64,000 nt of DNA from a virus (lineage: Duplodnaviria; Caudoviricetes), in the IMG/VR virus record IMGVR_UViG_3300025413_001239; one strand, written 5' to 3'. A program made the position numbers and the translations under genes. Positions 10,029-48,360 of this stretch are shown here, piece after piece. Position 1 is the stretch's first letter. The number at the start of each line of letters is the position of its first letter. The notes under the pieces were generated by a model. It was not told where the DNA came from, ran no database searches, and was given only the letters and a program-made list of their open reading frames with translations.

Positions 10029-10089
10029 AGAATCAGTTCAGCAAATTAAACAATTTTTTTATCTGAAACAAAAAAACAAAATGATTCTG
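10029..10089 (+). ncRNA. CAGCAA-family RNA, copy B (Phe-like loop)
   Basis: AGAATCA-gtt-CAGCAA ... TGATTCT-G; T7/A7 stem with CTGAAAC loop. Confidence 0.6.
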
Positions 10090-10094
10090 AAATT

Positions 10095-10168
10095 TACGTC
10101 ATTGGTGTAATGAGCACGTGCCCCCACATGGGGGGGGTTTAGACCAGTATCAAATCTGGATGACGTAC
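10095..10168 (+). tRNA. atypical tRNA-like gene (possible CAT anticodon)
   Basis: TACGTCA/TGACGTA acceptor, CCAG-tatcaaat-CTGG T arm, C/G-rich anticodon arm lacking U33. Confidence 0.45.
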
Positions 10169-10170
10169 TT

Positions 10171-10207
10171 GCGAGGTGGAGCAGTAGTAGCTCGCTAGGC
10201 CCGTAAA
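10171..10207 (+). pseudogene. 5' half of an initiator-type tRNA
   Basis: GCGAGG-TG-GAGC-AGTAGTA-GCTC-G-CTAGG-CCCGTAA with no 3' half. Confidence 0.5.
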
Positions 10208-10213
10208 ATACAT

Positions 10214-11265: not shown

Positions 11266-11315
11266 AAAAAAACTTGACAAATTAAAAAACTTTTCGTATA
11301 TTTGCATATATTTAT
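11266..11315 (+). promoter_or_regulatory. conserved promoter of tRNA operon 1
   Basis: TTGACA (11274)-17 bp-TATATTTG (11297), followed by ATATTTATT. Confidence 0.85.
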
Positions 11316-11339
11316 TAATAACGAACAAAAATTATCACA

Positions 11340-11441
11340 ATGATAGCAAACATAAACAATATGATTAATTCGATAAATTGGAGACATAATAGTCGCTCAA
11401 TTAATCAAGTCATGCTATCTAGTGATGTTAATAAAATATAA
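11340..11441 (+). CDS. leader peptide 1, MIANINNMINSINWRHNSRSINQVMLSSDVNKI
   Basis: Manually translated 33 aa ORF between promoter and terminator; 27 of 33 residues match downstream tRNA identities. Confidence 0.8.
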   Translation: MIANINNMINSINWRHNSRSINQVMLSSDVNKI

Positions 11442-11462
11442 CAAATTAAATCACAAATAACG

Positions 11463-11500
11463 AAAAGCCTCTGACTCATACGAATCAGAGGTTTTTTTTT
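11463..11500 (+). terminator. attenuator terminator, tRNA operon 1
   Basis: GCCTCTGA/TCAGAGGT stem plus T9. Confidence 0.9.
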
Positions 11501-11694: not shown

Positions 11695-11795
11695 ACGTAA
11701 ATGACCGAGTGGTCGAAGGTGGTAGGCTCCAACCCTACTGAGATATATAACATTTATGTTAGGTCTCCGCATAGGTTCAAATCCTATTTTACGTG
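11695..11795 (+). tRNA. tRNA-Trp(CCA) with long variable arm
   Basis: GTAGG-CTCCAAC-CCTAC; ATAGG-TTCAAAT-CCTAT; about 30 nt variable hairpin. Confidence 0.8.
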
Positions 11796-12016: not shown

Positions 12017-12099
12017 GGAGAGTGGCACCCAAGGTGGGTAACTAGACTTGAAATCTAGGCCAAGGTAAAAACTTGAGGTTTCGATTACTTCACCATCCG
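12017..12099 (+). tRNA. tRNA-Ser(TGA)
   Basis: CTAGA-CTTGAAA-TCTAG, long variable arm; two acceptor-stem mismatches. Confidence 0.7.
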
Positions 12100-12127
12100 C
12101 AATTTTGGTTGTTTTTTACTTTTTTTT

Positions 12128-12216
12128 GGAGAAATAAGGAGGGTAATGGTGGACCCCGTCCGTTTGCTAAACGGAAACCCATTAAGTTGGGCACGTTTCG
12201 ATTACGTATTTCTCCG
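12128..12216 (+). tRNA. tRNA-Ser(GCT)
   Basis: GGAGAAA/TTTCTCC; TCCGT-TTGCTAA-ACGGA; type II variable arm. Confidence 0.85.
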
Positions 12217-12219
12217 CTG

Positions 12220-13481: not shown

Positions 13482-13495
13482 TTCTCCATTAGCGC
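13430..13495 (+). pseudogene. 5'-truncated duplicate of tRNA-Asn(GTT)
   Basis: GTAGCTC..GAGCATTCGTTTGTTAAACGACAGGTCGAGATATCGTAATTCTCC nearly identical to 12601-12660; acceptor 5' strand missing. Confidence 0.75.
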
Positions 13496-13499
13496 ACAT

Positions 13500-13569
13500 T
13501 GCGTAGGTTATCGGAATACAACCATCTCTCATAAGGAAGGTCAAGGCGGTTCAGCTCCGCTCTACGCAA
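13500..13569 (+). tRNA. tRNA(CAT)
   Basis: TGCGTAG/CTACGCA; CTCATAA loop; GCGG-TTCAGCT-CCGC. Confidence 0.7.
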
Positions 13570-14647: not shown

Positions 14648-15292
14648 ATGCAAAAAGCTAAATTTATACTTCACGAACAAATGAATCGTATTCATGAATT
14701 ATCTGGAAACAATATGGTTTCAGGTAAACATCTAGTTGTTGTTGATATTCAACCAGAATACGAACAATGGTGCAGTCACATTCTCCCAGAATTTGTTGAT
14801 TTTTTAAATGAAAACTATGAAACCCTTTCCAGATTAACTTTCCTATATAATGGTGATAGTCTTGGTATGGTTTCTGAGGGTAACTATCAAAATTGGTGGT
14901 TCGATAATGGCTTAAGTGAAGATGTAATTTACAGTTCAAGGTTTTATGATAAAGGCTACGCATTTTTTAGGTATTGTATTGATGAGGGTATAGATGATGA
15001 AACTATTGTTAACCTAATAAAGTACATGCTTGAAAAGGATGTATTTGATACTAGAGAATTAGATGAGGAATTCTGGGATGAGTATGTCGAAAGATATGGT
15101 GCTGCGCATATCAGAGAATTATTAGAATTTGCTGGGGACTCAATGAATATACCAGACCTTATGGATGAATTAAAAAATTATACAAACATAATATTATGTG
15201 GTGGTGGGATTGATGAGTGTCTTAAAGAGGTTGAAATAGCTCTTCAAGTACTTAACAAACACTATACTGTTTTAACAAAATATACATACTAA
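14648..15292 (+). CDS. isochorismatase/cysteine hydrolase-like protein
   Basis: LVVVDIQ and ILCGGGIDEC patterns. Confidence 0.45.
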   Translation: MQKAKFILHEQMNRIHELSGNNMVSGKHLVVVDIQPEYEQWCSHILPEFVDFLNENYETLSRLTFLYNGDSLGMVSEGNYQNWWFDNGLSEDVIYSSRFYDKGYAFFRYCIDEGIDDETIVNLIKYMLEKDVFDTRELDEEFWDEYVERYGAAHIRELLEFAGDSMNIPDLMDELKNYTNIILCGGGIDECLKEVEIALQVLNKHYTVLTKYTY

Positions 15293-29796: not shown

Positions 29797-30384
29797 ATGA
29801 GAAAATTAATAAAAAAACTCTTAAGGGAAAATTTGTATGAAGCTATCACACAAAAACCAATGTTTGCTAGAGGTGTTGAACATCAAATTTATTTATCAAA
29901 GTCAGACCCAAATATAGTCTTTAAAGTTGGATACCCTAAATCTGTTGATAGATTCGTATCGGTGTTTACATCTAATCCTGAGTATTTTCCAAAAATTTTT
30001 AAAGTTGGTAATTTAACATGGCAGGGTAAACCATTTAAATATGCTAAAATTGAAAGACTAAATACTGAAAGAGTCATTAGTGAGTGGAATTATATTACTG
30101 GTAAATTAGATGAAGTTGGTATATTAGATACTGACTCAAATTTATTAGAAGATGTTAGCGATATTTTTAAATCGGCCATAACTGAAGATTCAGAATATGA
30201 AACGTATATTACATCTAAACTACAACAGCATGATAAAAAAGCCTACAAGTTATTCATAGATTGGCTTAATTTTTTACATCATGTAAATTCGATAGTTGAA
30301 CCAGTAAAACATAAAATTCTTGATATTCATAAGTATAATTTTGGTTATGATTCCAGTGGTAAAATGAAGTGTTTAGACATATAA
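29797..30384 (+). CDS. atypical kinase-like protein
   Basis: G.EHQIY, VFKV, DIHKYNFG, CLDI motifs. Confidence 0.55.
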   Translation: MRKLIKKLLRENLYEAITQKPMFARGVEHQIYLSKSDPNIVFKVGYPKSVDRFVSVFTSNPEYFPKIFKVGNLTWQGKPFKYAKIERLNTERVISEWNYITGKLDEVGILDTDSNLLEDVSDIFKSAITEDSEYETYITSKLQQHDKKAYKLFIDWLNFLHHVNSIVEPVKHKILDIHKYNFGYDSSGKMKCLDI

Positions 30385-30398
30385 AAAAATATTTTTAA

Positions 30399-30450
30399 AA
30401 AAAAACTTGACAATTCAAAAACTTTTCGTATATTTGCAGTATATTTATTA
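30399..30450 (+). promoter_or_regulatory. conserved promoter of tRNA operon 2
   Basis: TTGACA (30407)...TATATTTG (30429), then ATATTTATT. Confidence 0.85.
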
Positions 30451-30473
30451 AAAGAGATTAAAAGATAACAAAA

Positions 30474-30554
30474 ATGAGAAATTTAAACAACATATTGGTC
30501 CTTGTGTTATGTGTGCTAGTGTTAACTAGTTCTACTGGGTATTCCATGTTTTAA
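30474..30554 (+). CDS. leader peptide 2, MRNLNNILVLVLCVLVLTSSTGYSMF
   Basis: 26 aa ORF between promoter and terminator; six Leu (TTA, TTG, CTT, CTA) and a Cys. Confidence 0.8.
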   Translation: MRNLNNILVLVLCVLVLTSSTGYSMF

Positions 30555-30578
30555 ATTTAACATTTAAAAATAATTGAG

Positions 30579-30609
30579 AAGCTCAGTCCGAAAGAACTGA
30601 GCTTTTTTT
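30579..30609 (+). terminator. attenuator terminator, tRNA operon 2
   Basis: AAGCTCAGT/ACTGAGCTT stem plus T7, 3 nt before tRNA-Cys. Confidence 0.9.
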
Positions 30610-30611
30610 AT

Positions 30612-30683
30612 GTGCCTTTGTCCGAGCGGTTTAGGTAGAGTTCTGCAAAAGCTCTTACGGCGGTTCAAATCCGTCAAGGCACT
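30612..30683 (+). tRNA. tRNA-Cys(GCA)
   Basis: GTGCCTT/AAGGCAC; GAGTT-CTGCAAA-AGCTC. Confidence 0.9.
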
Positions 30684-30910
30684 CTTTAAAATTAAAAACA
30701 ATGGAAAAAAAATGACATCAAAAAAGCATTGTATAAGGAAAAGCCATTAGCCACCTTATCACATTATGAAGAAGGATGGAATTGGCATAACCGAAACCTA
30801 CCCAACCATAAGTGGAGAGAGTATAAGAGTTGGAAGTATAATAGAAAAACTAAGTGGAAATGAAAAAGAGATTTGATGCCTTGTAACACTCTAATGTGTA
30901 ACAATGCAAA

Positions 30911-31180
30911 ATGAAAAAAATGAACAAGAAGCTGTATGATAGAACAGTTGACAACAAAACGTACAAGTTATGCCATTATCAACAAGAAAATATTTGTTGT
31001 TTAAGATGTGCGAAAAGAAGAAGAAGAAATTATTTTTATTATGACTATGACGGTGGGAAACATTGTTATCCAAGTTGGAAATTAGTAAGTAAAAATAAGA
31101 AGCAATGGATGCCAAAAAAACTTAAGATTGAGGAAGAAAAACCCAATCGTTGGTATAGTAGAGGTGACATTACTTGGTAA
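30911..31180 (+). CDS. small basic Cys/Trp-rich protein in tRNA operon 2
   Basis: CLRC and SWKLVSKNKKQW pattern. Confidence 0.6.
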   Translation: MKKMNKKLYDRTVDNKTYKLCHYQQENICCLRCAKRRRRNYFYYDYDGGKHCYPSWKLVSKNKKQWMPKKLKIEEEKPNRWYSRGDITW

Positions 31181-31276
31181 TTGCGACATCAAGACATATT
31201 AAAGTGTCGTGATAGGTTTAAAAGTTACAAATTGTTGCAATAATTGCGACATTTCACCAGATAAATGGTGAAATAT

Positions 31277-31361
31277 GGGGGTGTGGTGGAATGGTAGACA
31301 CGCAGGTCTTAAAAACCTGTGGACCGTAAGGTCCGTGTGAGTTCGACTCTCATTGCCCCTA
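31277..31361 (+). tRNA. tRNA-Leu(TAA)
   Basis: CAGGT-CTTAAAA-ACCTG; type II. Confidence 0.9.
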
Positions 31362-31366
31362 CACAA

Positions 31367-31475
31367 CTGTGTTTCTGATAGGGTTGCTCAGTAGGAGCTC
31401 CAGTAAACCTTATCCGTTGATGAATAGTGGTCATGACATGAGTTCATTTTTCTGGTACGACAATCCAGAATACGG
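31367..31475 (+). ncRNA. cloverleaf-like RNA of unknown identity
   Basis: Closing CTGTGTT/AATACGG; GATAGGGTT/AACCTTATC arm; TCAT-GAC-ATGA hairpin; CTGG-tacgacaat-CCAG T-arm-like. Confidence 0.4.
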
Positions 31476-31561
31476 CCCTATGAGCAAATTGGTAAAGCTT
31501 GCGGTCTAAGAAACCGTGGAAAACATTAGAAACGTTCTCAGTTCAAATCTGAGTAGGGCTA
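31474..31561 (+). tRNA. tRNA-Leu(AAG)
   Basis: GGCCCTA/TAGGGCT; GCGGT-CTAAGAA-ACCGT; type II. Confidence 0.85.
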
Positions 31562-31563
31562 CT

Positions 31564-31785
31564 ATGAGTTTTAATTTTGATGAAAAGAAAATTGGTGATA
31601 TAGTTCAGATGACGGATTATTTTATAAGTATAAATCCTAGTGAACATATTCAGGAATTTAAAGATTGTGAAGGCGAAGTTATTGGTTATAGTGATGAAGG
31701 TTATACTGATTACTTAGATGTTAGATGGCAACCTAGTGGGTTAAGATATGGTTATCATTGGGTACATTTAAAACTAGTCCAATAA
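31564..31785 (+). CDS. hypothetical protein
   Basis: ATG just after tRNA-Leu(AAG). Confidence 0.65.
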   Translation: MSFNFDEKKIGDIVQMTDYFISINPSEHIQEFKDCEGEVIGYSDEGYTDYLDVRWQPSGLRYGYHWVHLKLVQ

Positions 31786-31958
31786 TGGCTAAAAAAGTAT
31801 CAAAAGAAGTTCAGATTAAACATTCTGAGGATTATGTTGAATTTCTAATTAAGCGGTTAAATTCTAACAACTATAAGTTAGCAGCAACTAAGGAAGAGTA
31901 TGCGGCAACTAAAGCTAAATTAGATAAAGAGCGATTGATACTTAAGTTGTTAAAATAA
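31785..31958 (+). CDS. hypothetical protein
   Basis: MAKKVSKE..., coupled to the previous stop. Confidence 0.65.
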   Translation: MAKKVSKEVQIKHSEDYVEFLIKRLNSNNYKLAATKEEYAATKAKLDKERLILKLLK

Positions 31959-31959
31959 T

Positions 31960-32041
31960 GGGGGTATGCTGGAAATGGTATACAGCTACGGTTTAGACCC
32001 GTAGGTCAAAAGATTTGCAAGTTCGAACCTTGTTACCCTCA
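31960..32041 (+). tRNA. tRNA-Leu(TAG)
   Basis: CTACGG-TTTAGAC-CCGTAG; type II. Confidence 0.9.
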
Positions 32042-32043
32042 CA

Positions 32044-32127
32044 AAGATGATTTCAGCAAATAAATAGGATAAAAATTTACACTTAAAATGCAAATCGAAA
32101 GGGTTCAAATCCCTAAAAATCATCTTG
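32044..32127 (+). ncRNA. CAGCAA-family RNA, copy D (anticodon-like and T arms)
   Basis: AAGATGA-ttt-CAGCAA ... CTTAAAA loop ... AGGG-TTCAAAT-CCCT ... TCATCTT-G. Confidence 0.65.
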
Positions 32128-32199
32128 TTTTTTATTAACATATTAAATAATAGTAGAGTTTATATTTACATTTTCATAAACTCTACTATATTTATTAAT

Positions 32200-32868
32200 A
32201 TGAGAAAAGATATTATAGAAAAAGAAAATGATGTTTTACAAATGATTGCAAATAATGACCCTAAAGCAATGATTTGTAGGTTTTTAAATTGTAGACCAGA
32301 GGTTCTTGAAAAATATTTAAAATTAAAGGGTATTAAATATAGTGGTAATCGTAGAATGGTTGGTCGGAGAAATCATCCGCATAAAAAATCTGTGGATGAA
32401 TATTTGGCTCAAGATAGGATATCAATACATAAATTAAGAATTAAACTTATAGAAGAGGGTATTAAAAAAAATGAGTGTGAAAATTGTAAATTAACTGAAT
32501 GGTGTGGAAGTAAAATTCCTTTAGAGTTGCATCATATAGATGGAAATAAATTAAATAACGATTTAAATAACCTACAAATCTTATGTCCAAATTGCCATGC
32601 GTTAACACCAAATCACGCTGGAAAAAAGAATAAAAAGAAATTTGAAGATAAAGCTATCCATAAAAGAATAAAACTTTGTAAATGCGGCAAGACAATAAAA
32701 AAAACTAGTAATGAATGTCTTAGTTGTTATCATGAAAAACAACGTAAGATTAAAAATGCTAATTTAACGGAATTAATAGATAGTGTTAATAAAATTGGTT
32801 ATTTAGCGACTGGTAGAAAATATGGTGTTAGTGATAACACAATTAGAAAATATATAAACAAAAAATAA
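32200..32868 (+). mobile_element. HNH homing endonuclease with C-terminal HTH
   Basis: CENC..PLELHHIDG...NLQILCPNCHA. Confidence 0.85.
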
Positions 32869-33669
32869 ATGTTTTACGTTATTCAAGAGAATGTCTTTAG
32901 GGAAGAACATTATGATATGTTAATTGATTTAATCAAACGACATAAGTTTGAATATGATATAGTTAAATATCGACCATTTTTAAATGAGATAGTTGCACTT
33001 CCAGTTGAAAATGATGGTGAACAACAAGAAGACGTTATTTATAAAACAGACCGTAAAAATGTTTTTTGTTTCGGTGCTGTTTCAATGGCCAAAGCTGCCA
33101 CAAAGTATGGTTGGAACCCTGGTTCAATGATGAATAAAAACCATGACTATGAAGTATATGGAAAAGCATTTGGATTTGAAAACATGTTAAATGGCGAGGG
33201 TCATGTTATCAATTTTATTGATAAAATACCTATTGATAACTTTTTATTCTTCGCAAGACCAACAAGAGATACGAAGGTTTTTTCAGGACAAATATTTACA
33301 CAAGATTCTTGGAAAGAATACGTTGCTGCTGTTAGACATATCAGTGATGAAACAAAAATTCTTATTTCTCCCTTAAAACAGATTCAACAAGAAGTTAGAT
33401 GCTGGGTTATTGGTGGTAAGATAGTAACTGCAAGTTCATATAAGATAGGTACTCGTGTAGTTTATACCAACTATGATGATGAAACATTCTTTACAGACTT
33501 CGCACAAAAGATGATTGATGTATATCAACCAGCCGAAGCATTCGTTATTGATATTGCCTTGGCTAACGACAAATTGAGTGTCATTGAAATTAATAATATC
33601 AATTCAGCTGGATTTTATGATTGTAATATGGTAAAACTCATAACAGCGTTAGAAAATCATTTTAATTAA
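32869..33669 (+). CDS. ATP-grasp domain protein (DUF4343/R2K-like)
   Basis: FARP..DTKVFSG, EVRCWVI, FVIDIA, VIEINNINSAGFY. Confidence 0.75.
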   Translation: MFYVIQENVFREEHYDMLIDLIKRHKFEYDIVKYRPFLNEIVALPVENDGEQQEDVIYKTDRKNVFCFGAVSMAKAATKYGWNPGSMMNKNHDYEVYGKAFGFENMLNGEGHVINFIDKIPIDNFLFFARPTRDTKVFSGQIFTQDSWKEYVAAVRHISDETKILISPLKQIQQEVRCWVIGGKIVTASSYKIGTRVVYTNYDDETFFTDFAQKMIDVYQPAEAFVIDIALANDKLSVIEINNINSAGFYDCNMVKLITALENHFN

Positions 33670-33692
33670 GCTACTTTCGGGTAGCTTTTTTA
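33668..33692 (+). terminator. intrinsic terminator
   Basis: AAGCTAC-TTTCGG-GTAGCTTTTTT. Confidence 0.85.
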
Positions 33693-33724
33693 TTTTATAG
33701 AAATATTTATATAAAAGTCGTTTA

Positions 33725-36091: not shown

Positions 36092-36142
36092 AAAAAAACT
36101 TGACAATTCAAAAACTTTTCGTATATTTGCATATATTTATTA
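36092..36142 (+). promoter_or_regulatory. conserved promoter of tRNA operon 3
   Basis: TTGACA (36100)...TATATTTG (36122), then ATATTTATT. Confidence 0.85.
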
Positions 36143-36165
36143 ACAACAAGTAACAATTAAAAGAT

Positions 36166-36264
36166 ATGAAAAAGGCATATACATATTATCAACCGAAAAC
36201 GCAAGGGGGCAAAACTCCTAATAGGCTGGGTGTATCTTTTTCTGATGAAGATGATTGTAAGTAA
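36166..36264 (+). CDS. leader peptide 3, MKKAYTYYQPKTQGGKTPNRLGVSFSDEDDCK
   Basis: 32 aa ORF between promoter and terminator; residues 5-18 are only Y/T/Q/P/G/K. Confidence 0.8.
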   Translation: MKKAYTYYQPKTQGGKTPNRLGVSFSDEDDCK

Positions 36265-36284
36265 ACAATTAGTAAGATATAAGT

Positions 36285-36321
36285 AAACCCCAGTCTGATG
36301 AAAATTCAAACTGGGGTTTTT
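36285..36321 (+). terminator. attenuator terminator, tRNA operon 3
   Basis: AAACCCCAGT/ACTGGGGTTT stem plus T tract, 7 nt before tRNA-Pro. Confidence 0.9.
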
Positions 36322-36703: not shown

Positions 36704-36775
36704 GGGATAGCCAGCAGGGTTCTGAAGACAGTCTGTAAAACTGAACTTCGTGTGTTTCGAGTACACCCTATCCCA
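36704..36775 (+). tRNA. tRNA-Tyr(GTA), short variable loop, atypical D arm
   Basis: GGGATAG/CTATCCC; CAGT-CTGTAAA-ACTG. Confidence 0.7.
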
Positions 36776-36780
36776 CATTT

Positions 36781-46410: not shown

Positions 46411-48360
46411 ATGATTAAAATAAATGATGTGATAGAAGGAAAAATAAGCGTTAACCATAGTGGTTCCGCTTATTTGGTTAGTGAGCAATCACCAAAGGAT
46501 ATTTATGTTCATAAAAACAATATTAATAAAGCATTTCATTTGGATGTTGTTAAGATTAAAATAGTTAATGGTCGTGGTCGTGAACTTGAAGGTGTCGTTA
46601 CTGAGATAGTTAAAAGATTCAGAGACGAATTTGTTGGTAGTATTCAAATATCAAAAAAACATGCATTCTTTATACCAGATAGTAACAAGATGCCGATAGA
46701 TTTCTTTATACCTCTAACAAAATTAAAAGGTGCTAAAGATGCTCAAAAAGTTGTTGTTAAATTAACATCTTGGAAAGATAACAGTAAAAACCCTAATGGT
46801 GAAGTTATAAAGATTCTAGGTGAAGCTGGTGATAATGAAGTAGAAATTCACTCAATACTCCATGAGTATGATTTACCCTATGACTTTGAACCTGACATTT
46901 TGGCTGAAGCTGAGGCGATATCGAGTGAGATAAGACAGTCTGACATAGATGCTCGTAGAGATATGAGGGATGTACTTACTTTTACAATTGACCCAGTAGA
47001 TGCCAAGGATTTCGATGATGCTTTATCAGTACAATGGGTTAATGGTCAACTTGAAGTTGGTGTTCATATTGCCGATGTATCACATTATTTAAGACCAGAT
47101 ACGGACTTAGATAAAGAAGCTTATCGTAGAGGTACCAGTGTTTACTTAGTTGATAGAGTTGTACCAATGCTTCCAGAAAGGCTTTCTAATGGCTTATGTA
47201 GTCTTAGACCACATGAAGAGAAGTTGTGTTTTTCAGCGATATTTACGCTTGACCAAAATGCAACAATTGTAAATGAATGGTTTGGAAGAACAATTATTAA
47301 TTCTGACCATAGGTTTACATATGAAGGAGCCCAAGAAATAATTGAAGGTAAACCACATTTCTATGAGTCTGATGAACTTGATGTTAATGGTGGATATGTT
47401 AAAACGCTTGGTGGTATGATAAAAGATGCGGTATTAGCTCTTGATAAGTATGCTAAAAAGCTTAGAAAGCAAAGACTTGGTGAAGGTTCAATTACTTTCG
47501 ATAAGCAAGAAATAAGATTCAAATTGGATGAAAACAACAAGCCAGTTGACCTTATATTCAAGATAGCTAAAGACTCAAATCAATTGATTGAAGAATTCAT
47601 GCTTTTAGCGAATAGAAGGGTTGCTTATTTGTTAAATCACAATGATTACCCAGATATCAATCGTGTGCATGAGGAACCAAGTCAAGAAAAGCTTTTAGCA
47701 TTAAAGCAATTTATTAAGCAATTTGGTTATGATATTAAGGTAAATACACCTGAGGAAATAACTTTATCACTTAACAAATTACTTGCTAGTGTTAAGGGTA
47801 AAGCTGAAGAAAACATAGTTTCTAACCTTGTGGTTAGGTCAATGCAGAAAGCGGCTTATTCTACAAAGAACTTAGGTCATTATGGTCTTGGATTTGAAGA
47901 TTACGCTCATTTCACCAGTCCAATTAGAAGATATCCAGACGTAATGGTGCACAGACTTCTAGGACGCTATTTAGAGGCTAAAGCAGCCCCTAAATTAGAT
48001 AAGTTGGAGTCAAGGTGCCAATACTTATCTGAACGTGAAAGAAAGGCTCAAAAAGCTGAAAGAGATAGCATCAAGTATATGCAATGCATATATATGAGTG
48101 AAAGAATTGGTAATGTTTATAAAGGACTTATCACTTCGGTTACTGATTATGGTATGTTTATAACAATTTGTGAAAATAATTGTGAGGTATTGGTAAAATT
48201 AACATCAATCAATGGAACTTGGTTGGTGGATTTAAAAAAATATCAAATAGTTGAATTTGACACTAAAGAAAAAATAAGATTAGGTGATTATGTTCATGTA
48301 GTTATTACTAAAGTTGATGTTGAAAAAAAGAATATTGATGCATCAATTATGCTTCTCTAA
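46411..48360 (+). CDS. rnr: ribonuclease R
   Basis: TIDP.DAKDFDDA, VHIADV, HFTSPIRRYPD, C-terminal S1. Confidence 0.95.
   Translation: MIKINDVIEGKISVNHSGSAYLVSEQSPKDIYVHKNNINKAFHLDVVKIKIVNGRGRELEGVVTEIVKRFRDEFVGSIQISKKHAFFIPDSNKMPIDFFIPLTKLKGAKDAQKVVVKLTSWKDNSKNPNGEVIKILGEAGDNEVEIHSILHEYDLPYDFEPDILAEAEAISSEIRQSDIDARRDMRDVLTFTIDPVDAKDFDDALSVQWVNGQLEVGVHIADVSHYLRPDTDLDKEAYRRGTSVYLVDRVVPMLPERLSNGLCSLRPHEEKLCFSAIFTLDQNATIVNEWFGRTIINSDHRFTYEGAQEIIEGKPHFYESDELDVNGGYVKTLGGMIKDAVLALDKYAKKLRKQRLGEGSITFDKQEIRFKLDENNKPVDLIFKIAKDSNQLIEEFMLLANRRVAYLLNHNDYPDINRVHEEPSQEKLLALKQFIKQFGYDIKVNTPEEITLSLNKLLASVKGKAEENIVSNLVVRSMQKAAYSTKNLGHYGLGFEDYAHFTSPIRRYPDVMVHRLLGRYLEAKAAPKLDKLESRCQYLSERERKAQKAERDSIKYMQCIYMSERIGNVYKGLITSVTDYGMFITICENNCEVLVKLTSINGTWLVDLKKYQIVEFDTKEKIRLGDYVHVVITKVDVEKKNIDASIMLL

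Follow-up and report, generated by a model that had tools for sequence, protein, structure and literature searches.

What governs the transcription of the many tRNA genes carried by large phages? The question is raised here by a short open reading frame (ORF) at positions 30474-30554 of the IMG/VR virus record IMGVR_UViG_3300025413_001239, whose 64,000 nucleotides (nt), analysed as a whole, are referred to as the window. The window is phage-like DNA with a GC content of 30% from a giant phage, and it holds 21 tRNA genes by ARAGORN at default settings, to which Rfam and relaxed scans add further ones. The ORF encodes a 26-codon leader (MRNLNNILVLVLCVLVLTSSTGYSMF) lying between a promoter and an intrinsic terminator, and behind the terminator are genes for tRNA-Cys and three tRNA-Leu isoacceptors (Table 1). 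An earlier note on this DNA had proposed that the ORF belongs to a leader-peptide attenuator placed ahead of these tRNAs. That proposal is supported by the match between the composition of the leader and the tRNAs downstream of it, by covariation between leader and terminator, and by folds computed with a ribosome masking the leader, and the module is probably a ribosome-mediated (leader-peptide) transcription attenuator controlling a phage tRNA operon.

In Flavobacterium, the sigma-A promoter element is TAnnTTTG at -12 to -5, Shine-Dalgarno sequences are lacking, and leader-peptide attenuation operates at amino-acid operons (PMC9723704). The host of this phage is probably a member of the Bacteroidota, Flavobacteria-like, because the -7 box of the promoter, TATATTTG, fits the TAnnTTTG element of Flavobacterium sigma-A. 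A sigma-70 scan scores the promoter (30407-30436) at 11/12. Transcription is predicted to start near 30441, and an A-rich untranslated stretch of 33 nt separates this predicted start site from the leader ORF. The terminator stem is formed by AGCTCAGT (30580-87) pairing with ACTGAGCT (30596-30603) and is lengthened by GAGA/TTTT pairs into a hairpin spanning 30576-30607. No further TAnnTTTG box was found between the terminator and the tRNA genes. Because tRNA-Cys has no promoter of its own and starts 2 nt after the T-run, it would be expressed only by read-through of the terminator.

The codon content of the leader is as the earlier note had counted: six Leu codons (TTA x3, TTG, CTT and CTA), one Cys codon (TGT) and four Val codons (GTC and GTG x3). 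With the amino-acid composition of the long ORFs in the window as background, Leu, Val and Cys account for 11 of the 25 residues, where 16% would be expected (P=7e-4), and 11 of the 16 residues at positions 4-19 (P=3e-6). When the leader is scored on Cys and Leu only, the tRNAs actually present in the window, the count is 7/25 (P=0.009). The Val codons chosen are the two rarest, GTG and GTC accounting for 6.8% and 4.5% of Val codons (P=0.001 for three or more GTG), and the leader overall uses codons rarer than genome usage (P=0.003), as is typical of stall sensors. The earlier note had also taken the fit of the Leu codons to the individual Leu isoacceptors as evidence. This argument fails, since the three tRNA-Leu together read all six Leu codons; under genome usage, six Leu codons sample all three isoacceptor classes with P=0.36, no excess over chance.

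Relatives of the module were sought with exact DNA patterns (promoter core and terminator) in IMG/VR and JGI metagenomes. The search gave 117 loci, about 30 of which come from related phages; these, labelled L001, L002 and so on, are the source of 21 distinct modules. Curated phage records contained no close relative, giving tRNA-level matches and one 595-kb uncultured phage at 46% amino-acid identity, and a protein-based locus search with the gene upstream of the module returned no loci. The leader frame is open and free of frameshifts in seven distinct homologues of the Cys/Leu/Val class to which the 30474 leader belongs, and in the 21 modules overall.

Within the window itself the 33-nt promoter core occurs as an exact copy at 36099 and in a form one base longer at 9763 and 11270, where chance would give 0 copies, and there are at least three paralogous leader modules (Table 1). 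Each leader spells the amino acids of the tRNAs that follow it. The leader at 11340-11441 precedes a tRNA with a CCA anticodon (Trp-like) and then Ser, His, Ile, Met, Asn, Arg, Arg and Ser tRNAs; the leader at 36166-36264 precedes Pro, Pro, Gln, Tyr, Thr and Gly tRNAs; and a fourth class, found in L016 (MRTLTNIFDFAFFAAEEDYSFGRSNTVIS), stands ahead of Glu, Met, Asp, Ala and Phe tRNAs. The cognate amino acids make up 25/32 residues in the Asn/Ile class (Trp/Ser/His/Ile/Met/Asn/Arg; P=3e-8), 18/31 in the Pro/Gln/Tyr class (Pro/Gln/Tyr/Thr/Gly/Lys; P=1e-3) and 12/28 in the Glu/Asp/Ala/Phe class of L016 (P=0.03), and over residues 4-19 the counts are 16/16, 14/16 and 11/16, respectively. In the relatives, the first tRNA behind the Asn/Ile-type leader is Trp(CCA), and that leader contains a single Trp codon. 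Every leader is enriched solely for its own downstream tRNA set (all non-cognate comparisons P>0.1), and the four amino-acid sets combined comprise all 20 amino acids.

These paralogues bear on whether the 30474 ORF might instead encode a free-standing hydrophobic micro-protein, a membrane peptide or type I toxin-like product with its own promoter and terminator, the tRNAs being transcribed by unregulated leak-through. The Leu/Val/Cys-rich 26-mer does resemble a membrane micro-peptide, its 11-residue Leu/Val/Cys core could span part of a membrane, and a strong promoter and a terminator belong to the unit itself. However, the paralogous leaders, which share the promoter, the architecture and a similar C-terminal part, are hydrophilic (Asn/Ile/Ser/Arg or Tyr/Thr/Gln/Pro/Gly) and match their own tRNA sets. 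No hydrophobic helix is conserved across the family, in which the match to the tRNA set is the sole common factor. Among the Cys/Leu/Val homologues, moreover, the residues of the hydrophobic core are shuffled within the Cys/Leu/Val set, their positions not being conserved, while a segment inside the ORF covaries with the terminator and tRNA-Cys has no other promoter. A micro-protein is quite improbable on these grounds.

Almost as improbable is the proposal that the terminated transcript of about 170 nt acts mainly as a trans-acting small RNA (sRNA), or as an element for the processing or stability of the tRNA precursor, with the ORF incidental or secondary. The transcript is short, structured (z=-2.9) and ended by a terminator, and attenuator-derived sRNAs such as rnTrpL are known (PMC7968998). 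It also shows weak, sub-threshold Rfam similarities, for example to Bacteroidetes FopS (25.9 bits, E=0.34), but the Rfam matches in the leader (MicC, FopS, RsaJ and Phe_leader) all lie far below their thresholds. Such an RNA would leave unexplained both the open frame in all homologues and the four leader classes that spell the amino acids of their own tRNA sets. The terminated RNA may have a trans-acting function in addition to its part in attenuation.

If the module is an attenuator, the terminator should have a competitor upstream. Pairing was sought with RNAduplex, with shuffled sequences and cross-terminator (non-cognate) pairs as controls. In the window, the two segments singled out by the earlier note, ACTGGGT (30534-40) and GCTCAGT (30581-87), are present as described, and their pairing is the core of an interrupted 12-bp antiterminator helix (30534-40 and 30542-46 with 30575-87) that encloses the stop-codon hairpin and covaries in the relatives. 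The equivalent stop-codon hairpin in L001, spotted by eye, is TTAATT/AATTAA. In all 21 modules the best partner of the terminator 5' arm falls at nt 53-84 of the ORF, immediately 3' of the codons proposed as sensors. Combining the 21 by Fisher's method gives P=1e-9, a value that treats as independent modules that are not.

The Cys/Leu/Val-class relatives carry four unrelated terminators, each with a matching complement at the same place in the ORF. A MAFFT alignment of the seven modules of this class could not align the non-homologous terminators and the shifted region 2 of L004, L016 and L100, so duplex energies were used instead. The arm AGCTCAGT of the window is shared by L001 and L021, whose 30-nt terminator sequence is identical to that of the window, and is met by an ORF segment ACTGGG(T/C) in the pairing ACTGGG/CTCAGT. 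The arm ACCCAGT of L002 is met by ACTGGG (pairing ACTGGG/CCCAGT), the arm ACCCATT of L004 and L016 by GATGGGT (pairing ATGGGT/ACCCAT), and the arm ACCTGATT of L100 by AGTCAGGT. In L001, L004, L100, L005, L003 and the module at 36122 of the window, the cognate leader/terminator pair outscores all non-cognate pairs. Compared with the window, the near-identical relatives L001 and L021 have a clearer antiterminator (-13.2 and -13.5 kcal/mol, respectively; P about 0.005).

To model the effect of a ribosome on this competition, 29 nt were masked as its footprint and the nascent RNA was folded. For an A site on any of codons 1-16, the probability that the terminator arm is sequestered is 0.42-0.75; from codon 17 to the stop it is 0-0.09. 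The antiterminator 5' strand is in the minimum-energy nascent fold when the ribosome is on codons 8-16. The permissive range takes in every Val codon, the Cys codon and all but one of the six Leu codons. With no ribosome on the leader, the arm is sequestered with a probability of 0.19 in the window and of 0.58-0.82 in L001, L002, L004 and L100.

Besides the membrane-peptide character of the 26-mer, several results weigh against an attenuator of this type. The antiterminator of the window is of moderate stability (-9.7 kcal/mol, P=0.09 against shuffles), and 5 of 13 non-cognate leaders pair equally well with its terminator arm. The antiterminators of the Asn/Ile-class modules are weak, and the simple masking model does not fit every paralogue because the stop codon of the Pro/Gln/Tyr class is too far downstream of region 2. 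The modules of the relatives are homologous, so that counts across them are not fully independent. For the full-length RNA at equilibrium the terminator is always the winning fold, and the switch must therefore be kinetic.

Some of these results could also be read as translation-coupled control of the opposite sign, in which read-through would, for example, require efficient translation, or as control with no amino-acid specificity, in which the hairpin would, for instance, be nothing more than a constitutive partial terminator fixing the dosage of tRNAs. In the model, the antiterminators of the Pro/Gln/Tyr class and of some Asn/Ile-class modules are not blocked by a ribosome at the stop codon, and dominance of the terminator at equilibrium would also suit either version. 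In the Cys/Leu/Val class, however, the ribosome positions that permit antitermination are those on the sensing codons and share their end point exactly, and the rare codons fit a stall sensor, which makes this alternative improbable as well.

For the 30474 module, then, we infer that the leader is translated, that read-through is regulated and that it increases when the sensed tRNAs run short. Transcription would begin at the strong Bacteroidota-type promoter near 30441 and the 26-codon leader would be translated as the RNA emerges. If charged Leu-, Val- or Cys-tRNA were scarce, the ribosome would be slowed on codons 4-16, leaving 30534-30546 free to pair with 30575-30587 and so block the terminator, and RNA polymerase would continue into tRNA-Cys, the three tRNA-Leu genes and the small genes interspersed among them. 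With fast decoding, the ribosome would reach codon 17 or the stop and cover or unwind 30534-30546; the 30576-30607 hairpin and its T-run would then form, and transcription would stop about 2 nt before tRNA-Cys. The outcome would be a feedback loop in which a set of tRNAs is supplied on demand. The same cassette, its leaders rewritten for other amino-acid sets, would gate the other tRNA operons, and the Val codons would represent an ancestral input of an operon that formerly held tRNA-Val genes.

Neither ARAGORN at default settings nor Rfam finds a tRNA-Val anywhere in the window, in agreement with the earlier note. Val codons in the leader lead to the expectation of Val tRNAs in the operon, and these are found in the relatives. 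The syntenic array, which the note had suggested inspecting, contains one to three tRNA-Val genes: Val(TAC) and Val(GAC) in L001, three Val genes apiece in L002 and L021, and Val(TAC) in L004, L016 and L100. They sit between tRNA-Cys and the homologue of the ORF at 30911, and the window has a scar at this site, so the suggestion that the Val codons point to a lost tRNA-Val has held up. The order in L002 is tRNA-Cys, ORF A (...KKALYKEKPMATLLYIRKG...), three Val tRNAs and ORF B (...YPPYYDEGWNRRIIKFPNHKYRSYKTWKYNRKTKWK). In the window there is a single frame, ...KKALYKEKPLATL running directly into SHYEEGWNWHNRNLPNHKWREYKSWKYNRKTKWK, in which the first part of ORF A is fused to the last part of ORF B. 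Positions 30600-30746 align with ORF A of L001, and positions 30760-31300 match, at 90% identity, the part of L002 that follows its three Val tRNAs. The operon has thus very probably lost its Val tRNA genes in a deletion of about 0.5 kb with its junction at approximately 30750-30765.

An A8 run at 30705-30712 (A7 in L001) puts the old ATG of the small ORF after tRNA-Cys out of frame (MEKK-stop). An assembly error was dismissed because the scar and the A8 region are identical in three independent assemblies (JGI 3300004684, ENA ERZ27271937 and ERZ27272019); judged from the sequence, the frame shift is a real pseudogene or a slippery site. The Val codons of the leader are evidently ancestral, because they are present in the leaders of L001, L002, L021, L004 and L100, and they would now respond to a tRNA that is no longer among the products of the operon.

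The earlier note had offered another home for the missing gene, a cloverleaf-like RNA at 31367-31475 with a GAC-centred hairpin, in the spacer between two of the Leu genes. ARAGORN finds no tRNA in the spacer at default, 90% or 80% thresholds. The relaxed mode of ARAGORN, which the note had recommended, yields a Val(GAC) with a 32-nt intron at 31366-31478, reproducing the proposed fold, solely when introns are allowed at the 80% threshold (-ps80). Across the window these settings produce 129 calls, of which about 100 are false, and they call some tRNA in 15 of 300 shuffled sequences (5%), though a Val in none of the 300. The call vanishes when the whole window is scanned, and its predicted D arm and 9-nt T loop are non-canonical. 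The spacer has no match to the Rfam tRNA model at E<=10, its fold energy is ordinary (z=-0.69), and BLAST found nothing similar to it among the Val tRNAs of the relatives, their loci or the rest of the window. The reading of the spacer as a degenerate tRNA-Val is therefore not supported: the relaxed call is within the false-positive rate and has neither Rfam nor BLAST support. A degenerate or intron-containing tRNA-Val(GAC) at this place is highly improbable, the more so as the Val genes of the relatives lie elsewhere in the operon. The flanking Leu genes are just 4 nt apart in L002, and the spacer is thus better described as an insertion.

The features of the Cys/Leu module, its operon and its paralogues are collected in Table 1. 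The controlled unit appears to run from about 30441 to about 33695 and to comprise tRNA-Cys, the small ORFs, the three tRNA-Leu genes, an HNH endonuclease and an ATP-grasp gene, because there is no internal TAnnTTTG box and the next strong terminator follows these genes. An imperfect 13-bp hairpin, TGCCTTGTAACAC...GTGTAACAATGCA at 30873-30912, lies directly ahead of the start of the conserved ORF; it is kept in L001 (14240-14280) with altered stem bases and may be a translational control element.

Table 1. Features of the Cys/Leu tRNA operon and of the paralogous leader modules; positions are those of the window.
Feature	Position	Strand	Remarks
Promoter cassette	30397-30452	+	-33 TTG inside TTGACA 30407-30412; -7 box TATATTTG 30429-30436, Bacteroidota sigma-A type TAnnTTTG
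Leader ORF, 26 codons, MRNLNNILVLVLCVLVLTSSTGYSMF	30474-30554	+	Leu/Val/Cys sensing codons are codons 4-17 (30483-30524)
Antiterminator 5' strand (region 2), ACTGGGT-A-TTCCA	30534-30546	+	Best duplex with terminator 5' arm
A/U hairpin, 21 nt, inside antiterminator loop	30549-30569	+	Holds leader stop codon TAA 30552-30554
Intrinsic terminator, 12-bp hairpin and T7	30576-30609	+	-16 kcal/mol; T-run 30603-30609
tRNA-Cys(GCA), first regulated gene (predicted)	30612-30684	+	Starts 2 nt past T-run; ARAGORN/Rfam
Deletion scar, remnant of two fused small ORFs	30701-30863	+	Junction about 30750-30765
Conserved ORF of 89 amino acids inside operon	30911-31180	+	Homologues in L001, L002 and L021; no Pfam match
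tRNA-Leu(TAA)	31277-31362	+	ARAGORN/Rfam
Spacer, 111 nt	31363-31473	+	tRNA-Val relic not supported
tRNA-Leu(AAG)	31474-31562	+	ARAGORN/Rfam
tRNA-Leu(TAG)	31960-32042	+	ARAGORN/Rfam
Next strong terminator, likely end of attenuator-controlled unit	33668-33695	+	After HNH endonuclease and ATP-grasp genes
Paralogous module	11270-11500	+	Promoter, leader MIANINNMINSINWRHNSRSINQVMLSSDVNKI (11340-11441), terminator
Paralogous module	36099-36321	+	Promoter, leader MKKAYTYYQPKTQGGKTPNRLGVSFSDEDDCK (36166-36264), terminator

The fourth copy of the promoter cassette in the window (9763-10213, + strand) has no leader ORF, encoding only MVTAT. About 400 nt of apparently structured RNA follow its promoter and are followed in turn by two tRNA-Met(CAT) genes, a layout shared by L101. 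A more distant lineage (L082 at 2445-6250, also L003, L010 and L068) has a module with the leader MKLLTNILTLNPNPLYNGNRGNVQSIVCSEYKI, of which 18/22 residues fit the tRNAs of an array partitioned in another way (Arg, Pro, Asn, Leu, Leu, Tyr, Met, Val and Gly; P=6e-5). This match is only suggestive because 2 kb, including an ORF on the opposite strand, separate the leader from the array downstream. Two unrelated viral contigs, L006 and L009, contain the same 21-nt promoter core followed by about 100 nt of conserved, apparently structured RNA and a homing-endonuclease-like ORF (MEQIEEWKPVKDW...). Homing-endonuclease genes are also present in the window.

Several other features of the window concern tRNA and RNA metabolism. 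A full-length match to transfer-messenger RNA (tmRNA) at 8834-9186 (+), missed by ARAGORN, scores 46.1 bits with Rfam RF00023 (gathering threshold 47, E=4e-15) and looks like a phage-encoded tmRNA. The CCA-anticodon tRNA at 11695-11795 (+) is 101 nt long (Rfam 53 bits; anticodon loop CTCCAAC) and is missed by ARAGORN at default settings; it takes the place of the 73-nt tRNA-Trp of the relatives and has a Ser/Leu-like D arm and an extra arm of about 28 nt. Relaxed ARAGORN settings alone detect tRNA-like genes at 12017-12100 (Ser(TGA)), 12131-12217 (Ser(GCT)), 13492-13568 (Met(CAT)), 36704-36776 (Tyr(GTA)) and 14702-14791 (Thr(AGT)). In this lineage many tRNAs for amino acids usually served by short tRNAs have a length of 84-91 nt (for example Met 87 nt, Pro 89 nt), and L005 carries a tRNA with a CTA anticodon at 3197-3272 (an amber suppressor, labelled 'Pyl' by ARAGORN) in the Lys/Gly part of its array. 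The window also encodes an exoribonuclease of the RNase R/RNase II family at 46411-48360 (+), with RNB, two cold-shock domains and S1 (Pfam E=2e-110).

The module has the parts of the enterobacterial attenuators. Like the leaders of ilvGMEDA (ilvL), ilvBN (ivbL) and the trpL, hisL, leuL, thrL and pheL systems, it has a promoter-proximal short ORF packed with chosen codons, a terminator, a mutually exclusive antiterminator and rare sensor codons. Its combination of Leu and Val codons is found in ilv as well, and of these systems the multivalent ilv leaders come nearest to it in style; with trp it has in common that equilibrium favours the terminator fold. Sequence homology to the enterobacterial leaders is absent (Rfam Phe_leader, 19 bits, E=4.6). 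The phage element differs from the ilv and trp type in its output, which consists of tRNA genes and small phage ORFs rather than biosynthetic enzymes, in the copying and rewriting of one cassette into four leaders that between them share out all 20 amino acids, and in its setting, a Bacteroidota-type host with a TAnnTTTG promoter and no Shine-Dalgarno sequence. The pheM leader attenuator of Escherichia coli controls pheST, the phenylalanyl-tRNA synthetase operon. It resembles the phage element in acting on the decoding machinery and not on amino-acid synthesis, but its target is the synthetase for one amino acid, neither tRNAs nor a multi-amino-acid set.

T-boxes also sense the supply of a specific charged tRNA through a terminator/antiterminator switch. 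A T-box binds uncharged tRNA directly and without translation, whereas the sensor proposed for the phage is a translating ribosome, and Rfam found no T-box, either at the gathering threshold or, for 30300-32200, at E<=10. The arrangement of the arrays, with small ORFs and homing-endonuclease genes interspersed among the tRNAs, is like that of the tRNA clusters of T4, T5 and huge phages. To our knowledge, leader-peptide attenuation has been described for genes of amino-acid biosynthesis and for a single synthetase operon but not for tRNA genes, and a full-text literature search, largely without subscription journals, gave no account of leader-peptide control of tRNA genes or of phage tRNA arrays.

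If the proposed attenuator is real, its output, a set of tRNAs, would feed back directly on its sensor, the speed of the ribosome on the very codons that these tRNAs read. This would explain how large phages dose many tRNAs, and would link their arrays to the depletion or cleavage of host tRNAs in infection and to anticodon-nuclease defences. The cassette would be a compact, reprogrammable part, in which a change of leader codons should alter what is sensed. From leader peptides one can also deduce which tRNAs a phage operon lacks or once had, as the Val case, which was predicted correctly, illustrates, and the copy in the window would be a natural experiment in which Val is still sensed though the Val tRNA genes were recently deleted. 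For the family as a whole, we lean towards the view that giant Bacteroidota phages run their whole tRNA complement as self-tuning operons, in which a duplicated cassette with at least four rewritten leaders, together covering the 20 amino acids and each sensing the pace of the ribosome on its own codons, releases each block of tRNAs on demand.

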